Made by a program: the position numbers and the translations under genes. A stretch of DNA of 64,000 nt from Candidatus Multivorans sp. (GTDB lineage: Bacteria > Acidobacteriota > Thermoanaerobaculia > Multivoradales > Multivoraceae), in the NCBI GenBank assembly GCA_965224025.1, contig OZ245033.1:1920001-1984000 (forward strand), written 5' to 3'. The notes below the pieces were generated by a model that was not told the origin of the DNA, did not search any database, and worked only from the letters and a program-made list of their open reading frames with translations. Below, in pieces: positions 44,482 to 61,275 of the stretch (position 1 is its first letter; each line of letters begins with the position of its first letter).

Positions 44482-44521
44482 GACGAGCGACGGTCCCGTG
44501 GCGGCGTATTCTCACGCCACC

Positions 44522-44640
44522 ATGACTGCTCTACGGGTGGGACTCACCGGCGGCATCGCCAGCGGCAAGTCCACGGTCGGCGCCATGCTGGCCGAGATGG
44601 GCTGCGTCGTCACGGACGCGGACGCCCTGGTCGCCGAGTT
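44522..44640 (+). pseudogene. coaE: Dephospho-CoA kinase, only first ~39 codons present
   Basis: [39 protein letters not shown] then runs into antisense rdgB. Confidence 0.85.
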
Positions 44641-45111
44641 CCGCGTAGGTCCGTTCGTGTCCATCGGGCTCGAATACCGGATCCCAGCCGAAGCCGCCCC
44701 CACCTCGGGGCGGCAGCACCAGTCTGCCGGCGGTCGAGCCCTCGGCGATCACCTCCCGGTCGCCACCCCTGAGCATGAGGGCGCATCGCGCCACCACACC
44801 GGGGTTGCCGGCGCGAATCGCTACTTTCGCGATGCCCTCGTCACCGACCGCCTCCAGCATCCACTTGACCAACGGCCCGGGGAAGCCGTTCATCCAGGCC
44901 AGTTCCAGGCCGGTCTCCTCGACAACGACCGGCCGCTCGAGCCGCTGCCAGGCAGCCTCCGCCTTGAACCGCAACACGTCGATCAGGTCGCCCGACTGGA
45001 TCTCCGGCAGATCGATCGCCGCCGTCTCCAGCCGGTGGCCGACGATCCGCTCCGCCTCGCGCCGCTTGTTCGCGTTCCCGGTGACCAGCACCCACGGGCG
45101 CTCGCTGCCAT
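44630..45111 (-). pseudogene. rdgB: Non-canonical purine NTP pyrophosphatase (HAM1), C-terminus lost
   Basis: VTGNANK, LPEIQ, EETGL..FPGP, GFGWDPVF..TYAEL; terminal SHR motif absent; start unclear. Confidence 0.8.
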
Positions 45112-46129: not shown

Positions 46130-46284
46130 CTGCGGCGGCGCACACCTGGCGGTGCAGCGCACCCGCCGGCTGGGGGCATGGGCGGTCAACCTCCAGGTGT
46201 TGTTCGCGATGGGTCGGACTATGAGGGGGGCTGCGCTCGCTCCTTCCCACTCGGAGTCCGGTGAACCGGGACCACCTCACAGAG

Positions 46285-47548
46285 TGCTTCAAGGAAGCCG
46301 TTGGTCTTTCTGGTTCGCGCCCAGGCGGCGACGGCCTTCATCGGTTCGACCCAGGAGCGGTTCACGTTGGTGCACCACTGGTGGAGCATTCGCAGGACGA
46401 CGTTGATCTGCTTGCGGTTGAGGATCTCGCGGAGGTGTTCCCGGTAGAGCCAAGCCCGGGCGGTACGGCGGCTGGCGACCTGAGCCACGAGAGCATCTAG
46501 GTCGGCGCGCTGGGCGTTCGCCAGGGCGCCGCGGTCCTTGAGCAGAGTCCAGCGCAGGCCTTTGAGGCTGGGATCGAGGCGCTGCTCGATGCGCCTGGTC
46601 TCGTCCACCGCCTTCGAGGCGAGGGCGACGACGTGGGAACTCGTCGACGGTCAGTCGGCGTTGGGCAGGGTCTCCCGGACTCCCTTGATGAAGGCGGCCG
46701 ACATGTCGATGGAGACCCGGAAGATCCGGGAAGGATCGCCGCCATGCCGGAGCAGGTCGTCGGCGAAGTCCCTGATGGTGGTTGCGCTGCGTCCTTCGGC
46801 AAGGAACACCACCCGCCGACGCCCCGCATCGGCTACCGTCGTCACGTACTTGTGGCCCTTGGCGCGCGATGTCTCGTCGATGGCTACGTTGCCGGCATCG
46901 GAGGGGTCCCTCTGCTCGCAGGCCTCCTCGACGTACCGCTTGCGGACCGCCCGCACCCGGTGCCAGGACTCGCCCGTCAGGCGGGACACCGCCTGGAAAG
47001 GCATTTCCCGGCACAGGCTGAGGATCAAAGCCTCATACAACAGGGTGAACCCCGACAGCCTGCCCGACCACGGCGGCTCGACCAACGCCACGCGGTCGTC
47101 GGGAAGCCGCACCCGCGGCATCCGGGCCTCGAGCAGGCACTCGTGCTGGAAGAAGTTGAGGTGCCGGTACCGCTTCAGCTGGGTGACGTGCATCGGGTGC
47201 GCTCCGCCGGTCTCGCCGTGCGCGAAGCGGCTGCCCCTCCTGAAGTCCATCCGCACCGTCAACCGGCGCTCGCCCTCGTCGAAGTCGACGCCAGCCACGA
47301 GCCAGGGCTCTGACACCCCGAGCGCCCTCGAAAACAGCTCCTGCTCCATCTCCCTCGCCTCCTTGGTCCAAAGGGGCGAAGTCTGACCCGGAAACGCTCC
47401 AAAAACCACCCGGCCATACTGGCCCACCAACCGTTTTCCGCAGCTTCCACAGGCTTCCGCAGACCCGGCGACGGCGGCTCACGGCCAGTAACGACTCGAC
47501 CGCACGCACCTGCACCAAGCCTCTACCCACTCGCAACTCAGAATAGGC
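46285..47548 (-). mobile_element. Degenerate ISL3 element (diverged relative of copy at 20663), frameshifted and 3'-truncated
   Basis: IR ...ACCCACTCGCAACTCAGAATAGGC ending 47548; transposase from 47349 split across frames near 46650; second IR missing. Confidence 0.85.
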
Positions 47549-47851: not shown

Positions 47852-48080
47852 TTCTAAATGGGGTTGCCTGTGAGGTTACAGAAGTCCACGATGATTTGGT
47901 CGGCGTGACCGCCAGCAACGAAAAGTCCCAGCACGCCGGCCAACTGCTTCTTGAGTTCGGCATTCTTAACCGAGGGCTTGCCGAAAATCTCGTTCTCGGT
48001 GAGATCCAACCACATAGCCACGGGAGAGAGCATCCCTATGCCTATACGAAGGGGATTATGTCGAATAGTGCCCAAGCCGC

Positions 48081-48269
48081 TCACCGGCGCGGGCGCTTGG
48101 TGTAGGTGATCTCAACGGGCTGAAGCAGTCGCCGCGCACCTTCGGCAAGCCGTTCCATCAGCGGCAACTCCATCAAGTCCGCTGGCGGCGCTACTTCGTC
48201 GCGCTGTTCGGCCCGTGACGGCTGGTAGTCCGCCTTGACCAGTTCGATCTTCCGCTTCTTCTTGCTCAC
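48081..48269 (-). CDS. Small basic hypothetical protein next to TIR
   Basis: GGAGG RBS + GTG; 62 aa; stop 3 nt from the TIR. Confidence 0.55.
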   Translation of the reverse strand: MSKKKRKIELVKADYQPSRAEQRDEVAPPADLMELPLMERLAEGARRLLQPVEITYTKRPRR

Positions 48270-48495
48270 GTTGCCTCCGTTCTCCTAGAACTGGTGCTGC
48301 TACAGTAGCGGCTTGCAATCGTCAGCAGCGGGACCTGAGTCGGGTTACCCGCTGAATACAACAGCCTGTTCTGAGGCTGCGGGTAGCTCCCGAAGCCGGG
48401 CGAATAGGCGGGAGCCTTGTCCGTGCTCGCTGCATGGCGGTTGCAACGGCCCGGCGCCAATCCAGGGGCTGGTGCCTCAACTGGAGGAGGCCCCC

Positions 48496-49812
48496 ATGAA
48501 GAGACTCGCCGCCGCACTGGCGTTGACCGCGCTCGGCTGCGTATCGACCACCACGTCGGCACCAACCGTCAACCCGACCGCCTACAACGCCACGGTCGCG
48601 GAAGCGGCGAAGAAGCACATGGAGCAGTTCGAGAGGCTCCAGAGCGTCTGGTTCCGACTCACAAGCGCCAACTCGGGCCGATGCACGAAGACGCGGTTGA
48701 TGTCGGGTTTCTGGTTCGCCGACCTCGCGACAGCCGCGCAGCCCTATCGCAGTGCATGGACGGCGAAGTACGGCCCGAGCGAGTACGTGACCGTGACCCA
48801 CGTAGCTGCAGGATCCCCGGCCGAAAAGGCGGGCCTGCGAGCGGGCGACCGGATCGTGGCCCGCGACGGGAAGGATCTCGGCACTGGACGACGAGCCGAG
48901 CGACGGATGAAGCGTAGCCCGCAGTCGCTTCACTACAGGCTGACCGTTCTTCGAGACGGAGGCGAAGCCACGCTCTACATGGCGAGCACTCGGCACTGCA
49001 ACTACCCGGCTGGCCTGCTCGAACACGCGACCGTGAACGCATTCGCGGACGGGAAGTCGGTGGCGGTCACGACCGCCGCGATGGACTTCATCAAGACCGA
49101 CGACGAACTCGCGTACCTGCTCGGCCACGAACTCGCGCACAATGCCTACGGGCATCTCGCGGCCGTGAAGCAGAACCAGATCCTCGGCGCTCTGCTGGGA
49201 GCCGTCGTGACGGTCGCGACTGGCGTCTACCAGGACTACAGCGCCCTCGGGGCGCTCTACCACGCGCCGAAGTTCGAGGTCGAGGCCGACTATGCGGGGG
49301 TCTACTTGGCCGCGCGGGCGGGCTACGACGTGGGGTGCGTCTCGGCGTTCTGGGAGAAGATGATCGCTAGGAATCCCGGTGCCGCGTGGGCCGCGAGTCT
49401 CACGCACCCCGACGGGTCTTCGAGGCTGCACGTACTGGACGCGACCGCAGCGGAGATCCATCAGAAGCGCGAGAACGGGCGGCCACTCGTCCCGAACCTC
49501 AAAGGCACGTTGGAAGCTGATCGGGTCGATGTCGGGTCGTTCTTGGCCGGTACTGATTGCGCCGCCGTAAGGGGCGCAACGAGCGACCTGCAAGACCTTC
49601 AAGACGCCAGTTGCAAGAGCGCGGCGGCGAGCATCGCTGTCTCCGTCGAGGGCCTTCAGACGATTCACGAGGCCAACAAGCCTACGGAGGCTCAGTGCGA
49701 TCTGTACCGCGCCCAAGCGAACCTCTGCCCGAAGGGCCTTGGGCACTGCTCGGACGATGACCGGAGCAAGTGCGCCGCGTGGGACGATCTGGTCGCCGAG
49801 CATTGCGATTGA
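48496..49812 (+). CDS. M48 zinc metallopeptidase lipoprotein with PDZ domain and Cys-rich C-terminus
   Basis: GGAGG RBS, lipobox ALGC, SPAEKAGLRAGD (PDZ), VNAFA, HELAH, EVEADY.G, LTHP. Confidence 0.88.
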   Translation: MKRLAAALALTALGCVSTTTSAPTVNPTAYNATVAEAAKKHMEQFERLQSVWFRLTSANSGRCTKTRLMSGFWFADLATAAQPYRSAWTAKYGPSEYVTVTHVAAGSPAEKAGLRAGDRIVARDGKDLGTGRRAERRMKRSPQSLHYRLTVLRDGGEATLYMASTRHCNYPAGLLEHATVNAFADGKSVAVTTAAMDFIKTDDELAYLLGHELAHNAYGHLAAVKQNQILGALLGAVVTVATGVYQDYSALGALYHAPKFEVEADYAGVYLAARAGYDVGCVSAFWEKMIARNPGAAWAASLTHPDGSSRLHVLDATAAEIHQKRENGRPLVPNLKGTLEADRVDVGSFLAGTDCAAVRGATSDLQDLQDASCKSAAASIAVSVEGLQTIHEANKPTEAQCDLYRAQANLCPKGLGHCSDDDRSKCAAWDDLVAEHCD

Positions 49813-49826
49813 GGACTCCATCCTTA

Positions 49827-51140
49827 TCAGGTTACGGTCTGATTCGCCATGAATCCGTCCTTCTTGTTCTTCCTCCGCAGGCCGATCAGCGTGAGCGTGT
49901 TGGATTTGCGCCGGTTGCACGGGCCGCAGAGCAGGCGACGGTTCGAGATGTTGTTGCTGCCCCCACTGGAGCGTGGCGTGTTGTGGTCCAGTTGCAGGTA
50001 CTCGGACGAGTCAAATCCCCGGTCGCAACCGTCGCAGTACACGTAGCCGTCTTCGTCCGTGCTCTGTTCGACCAACAGCGCCTTGCGTTGCGCGTTCGTG
50101 TATCCGTCTGGCGGTTCCTCGAAGAAGTGCTTGCGGCTCTTCATCTTCGGTGCCGCTATCTGCTCGTCGTCCGTACGTACTGGAACGTCCGTACTGTAGT
50201 GAACAGAGCCGACCATCGACTCTCGATCATCTGCGGCCATCCCTTCCGTTTCCAAGCGGTCAAGAACGACCCCATGGGCACCTTTCCATATATCGATGCC
50301 TGTCCACTTCCGATTCAGACGATGCGCCGCCACGCACGTCGTAGCGCAACCGCAGAACGGGTCAAGAACCATGTCTCCCTCGTTGGACGATGCACGGATG
50401 AAGCGCTCGTACAGCGCAAGCGGCTTCTGAGTGTTGAATCCCGTCCGCTCTTTCGCCCAGGGCATGACGCCGTGCATCTCGATTACATCATCCGGTATCT
50501 TGCCTCGCGCGTCTCTTTCGCTGCCGTCCGCTCTCTTCTGGCCATCGACCCACTTGTGTGGAACACGAACGTCATCGACGTTGAACGTCCACGCTGACTT
50601 GTGCTTGGTGTAGAACAGCAACGTGTCGTGCTTCCGTGCGAAGCGGCGCTTGGATGCACCCCCGCCACTGTAGTACCAGACGAGCTCGTTCTGAAACTGG
50701 AATCGTCCGAACACAGCGTCCATGAGCATCTTGAGGTACGCGCCTGCCGTGTGGTCGCAGTGCAGGTAGACCGAACCGGTCGGCTTCAAGACCCGCCTCA
50801 TCTCCAGCAACCGAATCCCCATCCAGACCAGGAACGCCGCCATGTCCTCGCCGTAGCACGCCCCGGCTGACTCGACCAGTTCCTTGATCGCAGGCCAGTC
50901 ATCGGCGATCTTGTCCACCCACTCTTGTTGGACGTCGTTCTCCCACGTCCAGCGGTCCTTGAAGGACGCGCCTGCCGCGAGGCTGTCGGGCGTCGCGTGG
51001 AAGTCCCGCCCTTTGTTGAACGGCGGGTCTGTGGCGATCAGGTCCACCGTCTCACTGTTCATGCCGCGCAAGACCTCTAGGTTGTCCCGGTGGAACAAAG
51101 TCCGGTTCTTCCAGTTGGGCTCGGAAGTTGCAGTGGACAA
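49827..51140 (-). CDS. Beta-class N4-C/N6-A DNA methyltransferase fused to C-terminal HNH endonuclease (true start probably ATG 51214, out of frame via repeat)
   Basis: DNLEVL, TDPPFN, TQKP, DPFCGCATT; then CDGC..LDHNTPRSSGG.N...N..LLCGPCNRRKS. Confidence 0.9.
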   Translation of the reverse strand: MSTATSEPNWKNRTLFHRDNLEVLRGMNSETVDLIATDPPFNKGRDFHATPDSLAAGASFKDRWTWENDVQQEWVDKIADDWPAIKELVESAGACYGEDMAAFLVWMGIRLLEMRRVLKPTGSVYLHCDHTAGAYLKMLMDAVFGRFQFQNELVWYYSGGGASKRRFARKHDTLLFYTKHKSAWTFNVDDVRVPHKWVDGQKRADGSERDARGKIPDDVIEMHGVMPWAKERTGFNTQKPLALYERFIRASSNEGDMVLDPFCGCATTCVAAHRLNRKWTGIDIWKGAHGVVLDRLETEGMAADDRESMVGSVHYSTDVPVRTDDEQIAAPKMKSRKHFFEEPPDGYTNAQRKALLVEQSTDEDGYVYCDGCDRGFDSSEYLQLDHNTPRSSGGSNNISNRRLLCGPCNRRKSNTLTLIGLRRKNKKDGFMANQTVT

Positions 51141-51145
51141 TTCCG

Positions 51146-51200
51146 GCGCTGGCGCGCTGGCGCGCTGGCGCGCTGGCGCGCTGGCGCGCTGGCGCGCTGG
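51146..51200. repeat. 8-bp tandem repeat (GGCGCGCT)x6 plus partial units
   Basis: Six exact units at 51151-51198, flanked by GCGCT and GG. Confidence 0.95.
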
Positions 51201-51210
51201 CCGTCCGCCG

Positions 51211-52200
51211 TCATGCCGAACGTGCGCCGGACGGCAGACCGTTGTCGGCGATCAACTCGCGGTAGCGGAGTCGCTTGCCGACCAGCCACGCTGATACGAC
51301 CGTCATTTGGTCGATGGTGTCGAACTCCCGAATGTTCTGCCGCCCCGCGAATTCATCGACATAGCGCTGTAGGTGCTTCGGCGAGAGCTTGTGGTAGACG
51401 CCCTTGTGGGCGCGCTTGAGCATCGACCAAAGCGACTCGATGCTGTTCGTGTGGATCTTGCCGTCCACGTACTCGCCGACCGAGTGCCGGACGGTGCCGC
51501 GCTCGTACTCGGTCAGACCGCTGTACGCCCCGGTATCGTCGCTGTACACCGTCGCGCCGGGTTCGACGTGCTCGCGCACGAAACCTTGAAGCGTCCCGCC
51601 GTCAGTCGAGCGGACGACCCGCGCCGCGACCTTCTTGGTCTCCCGATCCTTGATGCCGACCACGGCGGTCTTGCCCACGGTGCCGCGGCCTTCAAGGGTC
51701 TTCCGCTTCTTCGCGTGCATGTTCTTCCGCAGACCGCCGATGTACGTCTCATCGACCTCTACCGGCCCCTCGAAGACGACTCGCGGCCCTTCGGCCTCAA
51801 ACGCCTTGCGGAGACGGTGAGCGAGGTGCCACGCGGTCTTCTGCGTCACGTCCAAGTCACGGTGCAGCTTCATGCTCGATACGCCCTTGAGACCCGTCAG
51901 GAGCAGGTACAGCGCCATCGCCCACACTTGGTAGCCGAGGTTGCTCGCCTCCATGACGGTGCCAGTCTTGAGGCTGAAGCGCTTGCGGCACGTCCGGCAG
52001 CGGTACGGCATCGTCTTGTGCTTCGCGCCACTTTGGACGTTCTCGGAGCCGCAGTGCGGGCACGATGGACCTTCGGGCCAGCGGATGCACGTGAACCACG
52101 CTTCCGCCGCCGCATCGTCGGGGAACAGGCGGATCGCGTCGATCAGGCTCATGCCCTTCCGGTAGTGCTTACCGGGTGCGTCTTGCAGTGTCGTCGTCAT
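51211..52200 (-). CDS. IS1595 family transposase
   Basis: Zn ribbon CPHC..CRTC, HTH region, EVDETY, YSDD, HTNSIESLWS, YVDEF..R.N. Confidence 0.95.
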   Translation of the reverse strand: MTTTLQDAPGKHYRKGMSLIDAIRLFPDDAAAEAWFTCIRWPEGPSCPHCGSENVQSGAKHKTMPYRCRTCRKRFSLKTGTVMEASNLGYQVWAMALYLLLTGLKGVSSMKLHRDLDVTQKTAWHLAHRLRKAFEAEGPRVVFEGPVEVDETYIGGLRKNMHAKKRKTLEGRGTVGKTAVVGIKDRETKKVAARVVRSTDGGTLQGFVREHVEPGATVYSDDTGAYSGLTEYERGTVRHSVGEYVDGKIHTNSIESLWSMLKRAHKGVYHKLSPKHLQRYVDEFAGRQNIREFDTIDQMTVVSAWLVGKRLRYRELIADNGLPSGARSA

Positions 52201-52207
52201 GCCCAGA

Positions 52208-52236
52208 AGATTACAGGATAGTGCCCGTCCTGTCAA
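52208..52236 (-). promoter_or_regulatory. Sigma70 promoter for transposase, probably leaderless, containing a TIR sub-motif
   Basis: TTGACA-17 bp-TAATCT, 7 nt before ATG 52200; spacer contains GGGCACTAT, also present in the TIR. Confidence 0.7.
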
Positions 52237-52253
52237 GTGGTAAGATGGCCTCC

Positions 52254-52568
52254 ATGTCGGACAGTGAACGCCTCGGCGACCTCATGCTGAAGCGGCGGCA
52301 AGCCGAGAATTCAGCAGCCTGCTACCGCACCAAGGCGAAGGGGATCGCTCGGTCTCTGACACAAGCCGCCGCGTCAATGCTGAGCGCCATCGGAGACGCG
52401 GATCAGAACGTCCGAATGACTGGCGGCTATCCGGTCGAGATGCGAGATGCGCGCTACGTGGACTACGCCGAAGCACTCCGCGCCATAGAGCAGTACACGA
52501 AGAACCTCCATGCCGCCGCCGACATCGAACGGAAGATCGAAGAACTACTGCCGCCGCAGTGCCAATGA
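52254..52568 (+). CDS. Hypothetical alpha-helical protein (IS passenger)
   Basis: ORF divergent from the transposase; ATGA overlap with next ORF; start could be 52245. Confidence 0.5.
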   Translation: MSDSERLGDLMLKRRQAENSAACYRTKAKGIARSLTQAAASMLSAIGDADQNVRMTGGYPVEMRDARYVDYAEALRAIEQYTKNLHAAADIERKIEELLPPQCQ

Positions 52569-53002
52569 GCGAAGAACCCCAACGAGATAACGCCACAGAA
52601 GCTCCGCGATGGGTCTTTCGACGTGCGGCTTGCAACTCGGATTCTCTCTTGGAGAACGAGGTTCGGCAGCTTGTCGAGCGCGATACCGCGGACATGAACA
52701 AGCTCTTGGAGTGCCGGGGCGAGAAGTATCGGTACGAGGTCGTCAAAGAAGAACTCACGTTGCGAGTCGCGCAAAAACGAGACGGAGAGTCGGTTGCTGC
52801 CGTATCGTTCCAGTCGACCGGCCTACAACTGCGGTTCTTGATGGCGGAGCAGTCAGATGTGATCGTCACGCCTCGATGGAGCGCGGTAGAGATGCGTTGT
52901 CACCTCCACAAGCCCGGATCGGCAGGCACACGAATCGCTCTCGATGTCTTCGTGCGCGAGAACCTCGAACGGTTCTTCTTCCACGCCGCCGGTATCCCGT
53001 GA
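52565..53002 (+). CDS. Hypothetical protein (IS passenger)
   Basis: 145-aa ORF coupled to the previous gene; stop 1 nt before the TIR. Confidence 0.55.
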   Translation: MSEEPQRDNATEAPRWVFRRAACNSDSLLENEVRQLVERDTADMNKLLECRGEKYRYEVVKEELTLRVAQKRDGESVAAVSFQSTGLQLRFLMAEQSDVIVTPRWSAVEMRCHLHKPGSAGTRIALDVFVRENLERFFFHAAGIP

Positions 53003-53030
53003 CGCTTGGGCACTATTCGACATAATCCCC

Positions 53031-53251
53031 ATCCGAAAGCACCTGCAAGCGATCGCTGCCTGGGCGCGAACCCGGCAGACCAACGGCTTCCTCGAAGCCC
53101 TCAACGGACTCTTCCAGTCCGCCAAACGCAAGGCCAGAGGCTACAAGCGATTCGACACCATACGCATCGCCTTCTTCCTCATCGCCGGCAAACTCGACTT
53201 CCACACGCTCAACCCGCACACCGCTTGACCCACTCGTAATTCAAAAGAGCC
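53031..53251 (+). mobile_element. 3'-terminal fragment of ISL3 (near-identical to copy at 20663-22160)
   Basis: IRKHLQAIAAWARTRQTNGFLEALN...LNPHTA* identical to the first copy; IR ACCCACTCGTAATTCAAAAGAGCC. Confidence 0.92.
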
Positions 53252-58998: not shown

Positions 58999-59160
58999 TC
59001 AGTCCTCCGTGTGAATCGAGTTCAGCGTTCCAGAATGACCGCTCGGAGGGCTGTCGTCAAGACCAATTGTCCTCGCGCCGGGACTCTTCGGTTTCCACCC
59101 CACAACAACGGCGGAAGTGACGGGCGTAGACCGATCCGCTACATTCCGACCGCTCCCACC

Positions 59161-61275
59161 ATGAACCACAGCCAGATCGTCAGCTTCCTCTGGGGCGTCG
59201 CGGACCTGATCCGCGACACCTTCAAGCGCGGCAAGTACCAGGACGTGATCCTGCCGCTGACCGTGCTGCGCCGACTCGACTACGTGCTGGCGCCCACGAA
59301 GGCGGAGGTGCTGGCGACCCAGGCCCGGTACAAGGACGAACTCGGGAATCTGGACGGGCTGCTAAGCCGCGCCTCCGGTTTCGCGTTCTACAACACGTCC
59401 CCTTACGACTTCGGGAAGCTCCTCGCCGATGCGCCCGATCTCGCGAAGAACCTGCGCGCCTACATCGCCGGCTTCAGCCCCAACATGCGCGAGGTGCTGG
59501 AGAAGTTCGACTTCGACAACACGATCTCGAAACTGGACGAATCGGGATTGCTCTTCCAGGTCCTGCAACGGTTCGGCGACCCGAAGGTCAACCTCCACCC
59601 GGACGAGATCGACAACTTCACGATGGGCACGATCTTCGAGGAACTCATCCGGAAGTTCAACGAGGCGCTGAACGAGAACCCCGGCGAGCACTTCACGCCC
59701 CGCGACGTGGTCCATCTCATGGTCGACCTGATGCTGGCGGGCGACGAGGAAGAGCTGCGGACGGAGGGCGTTGCGCGCAGCATCTACGACCCTTGCTGTG
59801 GCTCGGGCGGAATGCTCACGATCGCCAAGGAGCACACGACCCTCGGCGAGATCCGAGACGGCAAGCGCCTGAGCGACCCGGTCAACTCGGACGCTCACAC
59901 GCACCTGTTCGGCCAGGAGGTGAACCCCGAGACCTTCGCCCTCTGCAAGTCGGACCTCTTCATGAAGTCGGAGGACGGCGGCGACGCGAAGAACATCCTG
60001 TTCGGAAGCACCCTCTCGAACGACCGGCACGCCGGAACCGGCTTCGACTACATGATCGCCAATCCGCCCTACGGCAAGGACTGGAAGCGAGACCAGGCCG
60101 CGGTACGGACCGAGCACGACCGGGGCGCCGCCGGCCGCTTCGCGCCAGGCCTGCCGCGGATCAGCGACGGACAACTCCTGTTCCTGCTCCACATGCTCGC
60201 GCACACGAAGGAGCCGGCCGAAGGCGGGTCGCGGATCGCGATCATCATGAACGGCTCGCCCCTCTTCACCGGTGACGCCGGCAGTGGCGAGAGCGAGATC
60301 CGCCGCTTCATCCTCGAAAACGATCTGCTCGAGGCGCTCATCGGGCTCCCCGAACAGCTCTTCTACAACACCGGCATCGCCACCTACGTCTGGGTGCTCA
60401 CCAACCGGAAGCGGCCCGAGCGCCGCGGCAAGGTCCAGCTCATCGACGCCACCTCGTTCTGGGTTCTGCTCCGCAAGAGCCTGGGCGCCAAGCGCCGCGA
60501 GATCCCGTTCGAGCGGAAGGAAGACATCCTGCGGCTGCTCCGGGACTACGAGGACGGCGCCACCCGGACGGTCGTCGAGGATGGCGAGGAGCGCGATGTC
60601 GTCGTCAGCCGCATCTATCCGACGACGCACTTCGGCTTCCGCAAGATCACCGTCGAGCGGCCGCTCCGGCTCGACTTCCAGGCCAGCCCCGAGCGCATCG
60701 CCCGCCTGGACGACCAGCGCGCCTTCGCCAACCTGGCCGTTTCCCGCAAGAGGGACCCCGAAGCCAAGGCCAAGGACGAGCAAGCCGGTAGAGAGAAGCA
60801 GGCAGCGATTCGCGCCCTGCTGGCGACACTGCCCGATCGGCTGTTCCTGGACAGGGCGGCCTTCGAGGTCGAACTGAACCAGGCGGTCCAAGCAGCCGAC
60901 CTGAAACTCACTGCGCCCATCAGGAAGGCCGTGCTCTCCGCTCTGTCCGAGCGCAACGAGAAAGCAGAGATCTGCCGCGACCGTCAGGGCCGCCCCGAGC
61001 CCGATCCGGAACTCCGCGACACCGAGAACGTGCCCCTCTCCGAGAGCATCGACTCGTTCTTCGAGCGCGAAGTGAAGCCCCACGTTCCCGACGCCTGGAT
61101 CGACACGAACCGGCAGGATGACAAGGACGGGAAGGTCGGCATGGTGGGCTACGAGATCAACTTCAACCGCTACTTCTACGTGTATCGCCCGCCCCGCCCC
61201 TTGGAGGAAATCGAGGCCGACATTCAGCGGGTGGAGAAGGAGATCGTGGCGATGTTGGGGGAAGTGACGGGCTGA
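59161..61275 (+). CDS. hsdM: Type I restriction-modification methyltransferase subunit M
   Basis: FLWGVADLIR, ILPLTVLRRLD, GEHFTPRDV, YDPCCGSGGML, ANPPYG, LFYNTGIATY, GYEINFNRYFY. Confidence 0.95.
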   Translation: MNHSQIVSFLWGVADLIRDTFKRGKYQDVILPLTVLRRLDYVLAPTKAEVLATQARYKDELGNLDGLLSRASGFAFYNTSPYDFGKLLADAPDLAKNLRAYIAGFSPNMREVLEKFDFDNTISKLDESGLLFQVLQRFGDPKVNLHPDEIDNFTMGTIFEELIRKFNEALNENPGEHFTPRDVVHLMVDLMLAGDEEELRTEGVARSIYDPCCGSGGMLTIAKEHTTLGEIRDGKRLSDPVNSDAHTHLFGQEVNPETFALCKSDLFMKSEDGGDAKNILFGSTLSNDRHAGTGFDYMIANPPYGKDWKRDQAAVRTEHDRGAAGRFAPGLPRISDGQLLFLLHMLAHTKEPAEGGSRIAIIMNGSPLFTGDAGSGESEIRRFILENDLLEALIGLPEQLFYNTGIATYVWVLTNRKRPERRGKVQLIDATSFWVLLRKSLGAKRREIPFERKEDILRLLRDYEDGATRTVVEDGEERDVVVSRIYPTTHFGFRKITVERPLRLDFQASPERIARLDDQRAFANLAVSRKRDPEAKAKDEQAGREKQAAIRALLATLPDRLFLDRAAFEVELNQAVQAADLKLTAPIRKAVLSALSERNEKAEICRDRQGRPEPDPELRDTENVPLSESIDSFFEREVKPHVPDAWIDTNRQDDKDGKVGMVGYEINFNRYFYVYRPPRPLEEIEADIQRVEKEIVAMLGEVTG

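Follow-up and report, generated by a model that had tools for sequence, protein, structure and literature searches.

Results

A Frame-Setting Repeat at the Junction of a Transposase Gene and a Methylase–Nuclease Gene

The DNA analyzed here is a stretch of 64,000 nt from Candidatus Multivorans sp. (contig OZ245033.1, positions 1,920,001 to 1,984,000), which is called the window in the following. It harbors a transposon of the IS1595 family, on which a transposase gene is followed by a passenger gene for a methyltransferase fused to an HNH nuclease (Table 1). The ATG of the passenger gene (51214–51212) overlaps the stop codon of the transposase gene (TGA, 51213–51211) as ATGA. An array of 7.0 copies of GCCAGCGC begins 13 nt past ATG 51214 and extends from 51201 to 51146 on the minus strand. 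An earlier sequence-only reading of this DNA had counted six units, and in its register there are indeed six full copies of AGCGCGCC (51198–51151). The ATGA overlap, the distance of 74 nt between ATG 51214 and TTG 51140, and the 45 aa peptide ending at 51077, all described in that reading, were likewise borne out.

Translation of altered arrays resulted in open frames of 443, 451, 459, and 467 aa for 0, 3, 6, and 9 units of GCCAGCGC, respectively. Removal of one unit from the array of the window yields the frame of 459 aa, as had been predicted. With its seven units the gene is out of frame, a state that is termed OFF here, while ON denotes an array that is in frame.

The array is not a chance feature: it had the highest score (112) of the 40 tandem-repeat rows in the window, followed by a row with a score of 63. 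Perfect arrays with a 7 or 8 nt unit and at least four copies were found only four times in the 5.14 Mb genome, and three of the four represent this junction in three copies of the transposon. Long arrays elsewhere in the genome mostly have units of 3, 6, 9, or 12 nt. Self-pairing of the repeat units was predicted both as RNA with flanks (z −2.6) and as DNA (z −1.4).

Contigs from short reads ended exactly at 51175, 30 nt inside the array, in 4/4 runs from two samples of two studies; one of these samples may be the source sample of the assembly. The contigs were presumably assembled at k = 31, and from the behavior of a 31-mer graph we infer that independent data imply an array of at least about five units. 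The out-of-frame repeat at the transposase–methylase junction was confirmed as a real observation. In a contig of the second study (run X4, window 51162–51221), the leader continues into a two-unit junction of the type seen in genome G026.

Table 1. Features of the transposon and of the repeat locus. Coordinates refer to the window; SD, Shine–Dalgarno sequence; ORF, open reading frame.
Feature	Position	Strand	Basis or remark
Terminal inverted repeat, cargo end, 27 bp, perfect match to the other end	48051..48077	+	Repeat search
Second passenger, PDZ + M48 peptidase gene	48313..49812	+	Listed TTG probably lies upstream of the true start
Beta-class N6A/N4C methyltransferase fused to zinc-HNH nuclease, intact	49827..51140	−	437 aa with TTG start; 459 aa with ATG start after loss of one unit
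Segment differing from two sister copies, codons 102–420	49881..50837	−	Codon comparison; both gene ends identical
Internal in-frame ATG with SD-like AGAGG, 15 nt past the stop of the OFF-state peptide	51060..51062	−	Sequence, alignment, structure model
OFF-state peptide, 45 aa, from the coupled ATG, stop TAG 51079–51077	51077..51214	−	Translation
Post-repeat leader with in-frame TTG 51140 in a predicted hairpin, without SD	51119..51147	−	Folding, SD pairing
Perfect tandem repeat (GCCAGCGC)x7, sets the reading frame	51146..51201	−	Sister copies with 7 and 4 units; self-folding as slipped hairpin
ATGA overlap of methylase start and transposase stop	51211..51214	−	Sequence; in predicted stem that involves the 3' end of the transposase gene
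IS1595-family transposase, 329 aa, zinc ribbon + DDE	51211..52200	−	PF12762, PF12760; NF033547 180.8 bits (cut-off 75)
Two overlapping ORFs between transposase promoter and right end	52176..53002	+	Without Pfam, PADLOC, or NCBIfam match
Candidate promoter of a transposase–methylase operon, TTGACA-17 nt-TAATCT, 7 nt before ATG 52200 (leaderless)	52208..52236	−	Putative, by eye
Terminal inverted repeat, transposase end	53004..53030	−	Repeat search
Target duplication, 8 bp; partner flanks another copy (G000:C1:245882 on)	53031..53038	−	Copy comparison

The Passenger Is a Predicted Single-Chain Methylase and Nuclease

The passenger is predicted from its sequence to act as a methylase and as a nuclease. 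PF01555 (N6_N4_Mtase) and PF01844 (HNH) matched within one ORF. The methylase motifs DPPF (51029–51018, aa 38) and DPFCGC (from 50363, aa 260) stand in the order IV, target recognition domain (TRD), I, and an HNH motif CxxC...DH...N...CxxCN is present at 50036–49914. The catalytic and zinc residues of both domains were invariant in 86 aligned sequences. The best matches in sequence and fold were M.BceJIV, M.RsrI, and CcrM (structure model with pLDDT 85.9), and the best PADLOC models for the passenger were of the type MTase_II. At least 7985 of 8000 candidates were scored as relatives of the methylase–HNH protein, and most of them begin a few residues before the motif NWxNRTLF. No res (helicase–nuclease) gene adjoins the passenger, the neighbors being the transposase and PDZ–M48 peptidase genes, and no Res subunit was seen in the element. 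The passenger is therefore not a Type III mod gene. The phase switch proposed in the sequence-only reading, which had named Type III mod genes as the known case, was partly supported, in that the repeat number does set the frame.

The two sister copies of the transposon in the same genome, A and B, carry one and the same methylase, to which the copy of the window is identical in codons 1–101 and 421–437. Divergence from the sisters peaked in codons 151–235, the presumed target recognition region (54/83 non-synonymous). It was lowest in the HNH region, where 19 synonymous codons and 1 non-synonymous codon differed. In the best sample, contig depths for the window type, the sister type, and the shared part were about 1:2:3. 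The specificity region of the window type was without coverage in the second short-read study.

Alternative Start Codons

The sequence-only reading had stated that TTG 51140 lacks a good ribosome binding site. In agreement with this, Shine–Dalgarno pairing was not found for this codon (+1.2 kcal/mol), and it is covered by a predicted hairpin. Since such a hairpin was predicted in only about 5/16 leaders of relatives, we did not use it as general evidence. Another in-frame start, ATG 51062, had been overlooked. It is preceded by the SD-like AGAGG (−6.5 kcal/mol) and public gene calls place the start there (P0229, P0232). A protein begun at this ATG would lack the strand at residues 14–17, the helix at residues 20–26, and the invariant residues R13, N20, and L21.

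Folding models suggest that a stem with the 3' end of the transposase gene would hide ATG 51214 until a ribosome arriving from upstream opens it. We rejected a +1 frameshift of the prfB kind at the transposase stop, because the P-site codon should be unable to re-pair.

The Repeat Locus Is Part of an IS1595 Transposon Present in Three Copies

The sequence-only reading had placed the methylase–nuclease gene on a transposon and considered it to be OFF. The transposon was identified as an element of 4980 bp (48051–53030) with 27 bp perfect inverted repeats in all three genome copies, and the gene is OFF here. The source genome (G000; 5.14 Mb, three contigs) contains three copies of the element with 100% identical transposases. 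Their unit numbers are 7, 7, and 4; all are out of frame and fall into the same frame class. Copies A and B differ solely by 24 nt of the repeat across about 5 kb.

The 8 bp flanks of the three copies pair crosswise with 8/8, 8/8, and 7/8 bases. The flank pairs span window 53031–53240 and G000:C1:245882 on, as well as window 48050 and G000:C1:1567987. The outer flank of the window copy and the flank of copy A are the two halves of an ISL3 element, which was contiguous in 14/15 genome matches. From the crosswise flanks and the split ISL3 element it follows that the transposon was inserted with an 8 bp duplication. Recombination between transposon copies apparently rearranged the chromosome, a mis-join in the assembly being the alternative. 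Of the traits of IS1595 elements with passenger genes, four were tested and all were found: a DDE and zinc-ribbon transposase, inverted repeats, an 8 bp duplication, and passengers inside the repeats. The element belongs to this group.

Nine further, more distant IS1595–methylase units in G000 (C1: 889–890, 910, 2132, 2225, 3607, 267, 475, 1310, and 1997 kb) carry other beta-class methylases with ATGA coupling and without long repeats, and some of them are broken or interrupted by insertion sequences. In all rows listed for the nine other transposase copies of G000, the next gene likewise starts at the overlapping ATG. The copy at 889–890 kb is out of frame and internally deleted. A 1 nt deletion in its leader was considered and dropped, as this leader has the common GIVPA form with two 7-mer units.

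The PDZ–M48 peptidase gene of the transposon is convergent with the methylase–nuclease gene. The consensus promoter scan did not list the candidate TTGACA-17 nt-TAATCT promoter at 52208..52236. Outside the element, the window contains a broken transposase gene of the ISL3 family (46219–47430, stop at 46651) that shares about 78% identity with the intact ISL3 copies elsewhere in the genome, and an HsdM-like Type I restriction–modification gene, recognized by eye from its motifs, at 59011–61275, 6 kb from the transposon. At 44498–44786, the N-terminus of what we take to be a dephospho-CoA kinase-like protein apparently abuts a non-canonical purine NTPase-like gene of opposite orientation, as if through a local inversion or truncation.

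Distribution of the Repeat

A homolog was present in 16/42 genomes of the genus, and a class-wide search gave matches solely in the own genus (13/401 genomes). No match was found in viral contigs, while plasmids gave eight distant records, all below 40% identity. A pattern scan of metagenomes returned at least 120 stretches; none of those listed had a transposase or methylase match. The scan of genomes returned at least 116 stretches, and among those listed about 20 had a transposase match and one was of this junction type.

We scored a locus as repeat-bearing when at least three units were present within 200 nt upstream of the methylase core. Within the genus, 15/30 loci in eight genomes had a repeat (31 given, one not anchored). 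Only 1/95 loci from families of Bryobacterales, Caldilineaceae, Gemmatimonadota, Alphaproteobacteria, and other lineages did so (111 given, 16 not anchored). None of 32 transposase junctions with other passengers had a repeat. Among random windows, 79/3000 scored, 26 of these with a non-triplet unit. All 16 repeats that were found, 15 in the genus and one elsewhere, have units of 7 or 8 nt. The loci are not independent of each other, and one unit may have arisen from another.

Several units occur at the junctions. GCCAGCGC is present in 12 (in frame), 11 (out of frame), and 5 copies in G021. GACCGGGC was found with 8, 8, and 2 copies in G063, with 2 and 2 copies in G027, and with 1 and 1 copies in G033. 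The 7-mers are GACGCGG (9 copies, G010), GACCGGC (20 and 5 copies in G003, at least 14 in G036), and GGGGGCC (10 copies, G063). The repeat types are scattered over both the methylase and the transposase tree. The trees were used only for this scatter and for the grouping of P0233 and P0234 described below, as the rows of the G021a methylase and the G023a transposase are in the wrong frame and one methylase row is below the length cut.

Some loci deviate from this arrangement. L033 (G005:C6) has no adjacent transposase gene, and its repeat, about 10 units of an 8-mer, precedes the start codon and is close to a promoter-like sequence; switching is possibly transcriptional here rather than by frameshift. 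The Bryobacterales homolog L295 (G415:C1:2189611) likewise lacks a transposase; behind a promoter-like sequence of its own it has an ATG and six 8-mer units, and it is out of frame. We read this locus as the same putative switch arrangement outside of transposase coupling. At L311, L388, and L389 (G064, G026), an MTADG leader with a single GCCAGCGC unit precedes a non-methylase passenger, and the repeat unit may originate from such a transposase-linked leader.

In-Frame and Out-of-Frame Forms among Relatives

In G010, the overlapping ATG reads through the nine 7-mers into an intact methylase–HNH gene (motif I and HNH intact). Two of 237 database proteins have an N-terminus with clear periodicity, namely P0122 (intact, 487 aa) and P0233, in which an 8 aa periodic tail leads into the same PELSTATS leader as in the window gene. 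P0234 (463 aa, intact) has one 7 aa period of the G010 type. Both P0233 and P0234 grouped with the G000 proteins in the tree. Close homologs therefore begin at the upstream ATG and translate the repeat. Homologs starting at the TTG, which the sequence-only reading had named as evidence against itself, were not what we found for these two proteins. The intact in-frame forms (G010, P0234, and P0122) are alleles other than that of the window.

That reading had also suggested counting the units in other copies of the element. The number varied among sister copies, with 7/7/4 in G000, 8/8/2 in G063, and 12/11 in G021, in contrast to the invariance that the reading had named as its other ground for refutation. 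The OFF genes retain all catalytic motifs.

A Putative OFF-Biased Slippage Switch

We consider it reasonably probable, judging from sequence comparison, that the repeat is an OFF-biased, reversible slippage switch for a single-chain methylase–nuclease on an active IS1595 transposon. Transcription would start from the promoter ahead of the transposase gene, and ribosomes that terminate on the transposase would restart at the overlapping ATG. A number of units divisible by three would give the complete enzyme, extended at its N-terminus by a short tail encoded in the repeat, while all other numbers would lead to a stop after 29–64 codons. The unit number may be changed by replication slippage, probably favored by self-pairing of the units, or by recombination between copies. 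The ON state would create a minority of cells with a new methylation specificity and probably a new restriction specificity, and copies with different specificity regions could switch independently. A frameshift at the very start of the gene would abolish both activities together, as PMC4889913 proposes for Cj0031. The switch would rest mostly in the OFF state, the most likely reason being the cost of an active nuclease fusion in a chromosome that is not yet methylated.

Non-triplet repeats in 5' coding regions are described as the signature of phase-variable methylases in PMC5909438 and PMC7383803, the former of which also gave the threshold of at least three units. The array of the window is such a frame-setting repeat, and across relatives the unit number varies among close alleles with ON and OFF states.

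Several observations weigh against this switch. Among intact genes with a determinable frame, 16/17 copies and 10/11 distinct elements were OFF. If one third were expected to be ON, this excess has P = 0.0096 for copies and P = 0.075 for elements, kin not being independent. The count omitted G017 (N gap), G036 (contig end), G005, six broken genes, of which three are in frame (G021a and both of G026), and loci without this leader. All three G000 copies are OFF in one frame. Sister copies whose genes are intact lie 3, 6, and 15 units apart, which slippage by one unit does not predict; the sole one-unit step (12 versus 11 in G021) was found in a gene with a downstream frameshift. P0233, one of the two proteins with a periodic N-terminus, is truncated (243 aa), and one of the 15 repeats of the genus, that of G005, lies upstream of the start codon and outside the frame. 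The pattern of multiples of three would arise by chance in 1 of 27 cases, or in 1 of 8 if the ON state is avoided, and the G003 pair consists of different methylases. The strong OFF bias and this pattern are the features worth following.

A more far-reaching version is on balance unlikely. The repeat might have evolved on the transposon as a safety catch, by which the enzyme is kept OFF while the element multiplies in unmethylated chromosomes and is licensed in rare cells. Recombination would swap specificities and reset the array in frame-keeping steps of three units. In that case, the symbiont would hold silent restriction and methylation specificities as a mobile, combinatorial bank.

Alternative Explanations

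The OFF excess could also mean that the repeat is a mutational hotspot that was selected to knock out a harmful passenger in one direction, with reversion being rare or removed. The 16/17 OFF copies agree with this, as does the finding that 3/4 in-frame genome copies are among the broken genes named above; many members of the family in other lineages are broken without any repeat. We nevertheless consider one-way silencing improbable. The OFF genes keep all motifs and show an excess of synonymous changes, and intact ON forms with repeats exist. Furthermore, non-triplet arrays of up to 20 units, built from several units at one position, are more than a single frameshift needs.

Still less probable in our view is that the frame class itself is under selection and that OFF frames yield protein at a low level, through TTG 51140 (ATT in relatives), through a restart at ATG 51062, or, in the frame class that continues the transposase frame, by reading past the UGA-C stop of the transposase. 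Sister copies do hold their frame class (7, 7, 4; 8, 8, 2; 20, 5), and an in-frame TTG or ATT directly follows the repeat in every leader-type copy of the genus. ATG 51062 has its SD-like sequence 15 nt past the OFF stop. Furthermore, 10/16 OFF copies lie one base away from the start frame; for the transposase-linked ones, this is the frame of the transposase. However, the TTG and ATT codons lack an SD and the TTG is covered by the hairpin, the product of ATG 51062 would be without the invariant residues and the first strand, and no other in-frame start is available in G415. As both OFF frame classes occur, a single programmed shift does not explain them, and the window copy is not in the transposase frame.

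An assembly or polishing artefact that hides an in-frame unit number is very improbable. Repeat lengths are error-prone in assemblies, but this array is perfect in copies that are otherwise base-identical, the short-read contigs end 30 nt inside it in two studies, the out-of-frame state recurs in many other near-complete genomes, and several close database homologs are likewise called from an internal ATG.

The sequence-only reading had offered a self-target array as an alternative role. The palindrome GCGCGC, present at each junction between units, would then be the enzyme's own site and serve autoregulation. This idea is unsupported and very improbable. The units of relatives (GACCGGGC, GACGCGG, GACCGGC, GGGGGCC, GCCCAACC) lack the palindrome, the same repeat stands ahead of methylases whose specificity regions differ, the genome shows no depletion of GCGCGC (observed/expected 1.04), and the enzyme is a beta-class amino-methylase.

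Comparison with Known Systems

Most known repeat-switched methylases are encoded by chromosomal genes of Type I, III, and IIG in host-adapted pathogens. In the open-access literature, searched as main texts, we found no paper on a repeat-switched methylase–HNH gene on an IS1595 element. If the locus switches, the same device sits on a multi-copy transposon, is tied to transposase translation in a host that is probably a marine symbiont, and gates an uncharacterized methylase–HNH architecture. It would also provide a testable answer to the question of how a methylase-fused restriction enzyme can enter a naive chromosome without cutting it.

The element itself resembles IS1595 elements with passengers (tIS) such as MTnSag1 and tISCpe8, which, according to PMC5704250 and PMC12561309, have a DDE transposase, inverted repeats of about 25 bp, an 8 bp duplication, and few copies per genome. 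Unlike the resistance genes described there, the passenger here is a methylase–nuclease with a repeat-set frame. The replaced central segment is reminiscent of the movement of target recognition domains in mod genes of Helicobacter pylori, for which PMC3467074 describes replacement of the central region between motif-coding flanks of beta-class methylases. Here, the replaced stretch continues through motif I into the HNH region, and the carriers are transposon copies. The fold and motif order of the methylase are those of M.BceJIV (8URK, 9C3U), M.RsrI, CcrM, M.MboIIA, and EcoP15I Mod (Foldseek E 3e-17; TM 0.8 over target). The best matches listed cover the methylase core alone at about 25% identity, and none of these solved methylases has a fused HNH domain.

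Cj0031, a Type IIG enzyme of Campylobacter jejuni, combines, according to PMC4889913, methylase and nuclease in one polypeptide, both activities are removed by a repeat frameshift, and only some alleles of the family have the repeat. It is an M.TaqI/Eco57I-like protein of 1243 aa with a poly-G tract at nt 2573 in the same account. The passenger here has about 460 aa, a beta-class methylase with HNH, and an 8-mer at the very start, and it is located on a transposon. It thus shares the single polypeptide with Type IIG enzymes of the Cj0031, Eco57I, and BpuSI type, but not their M.TaqI/Eco57I-like core. Type IIG enzymes have an N-terminal PD-(D/E)XK nuclease, in place of which the passenger has a C-terminal HNH domain.

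With repeat-switched Type III mod genes, as described in PMC5909438, the passenger shares the beta-class amino-methylase, a 5' non-triplet repeat, and conserved ends around a swapped central specificity region. The beta-class motif order IV, TRD, I is also that of Type III mod, while an adjacent res gene is absent. In contrast to the genes of that report, it has a fused C-terminal HNH domain in an element in which no Res subunit was seen. It also travels on a multi-copy transposon, with its start coupled to the stop of the transposase gene, in what is probably an environmental symbiont. By this comparison, the passenger would work in the manner of the repeat-switched Type III mod genes and Type IIG genes without belonging to either group.

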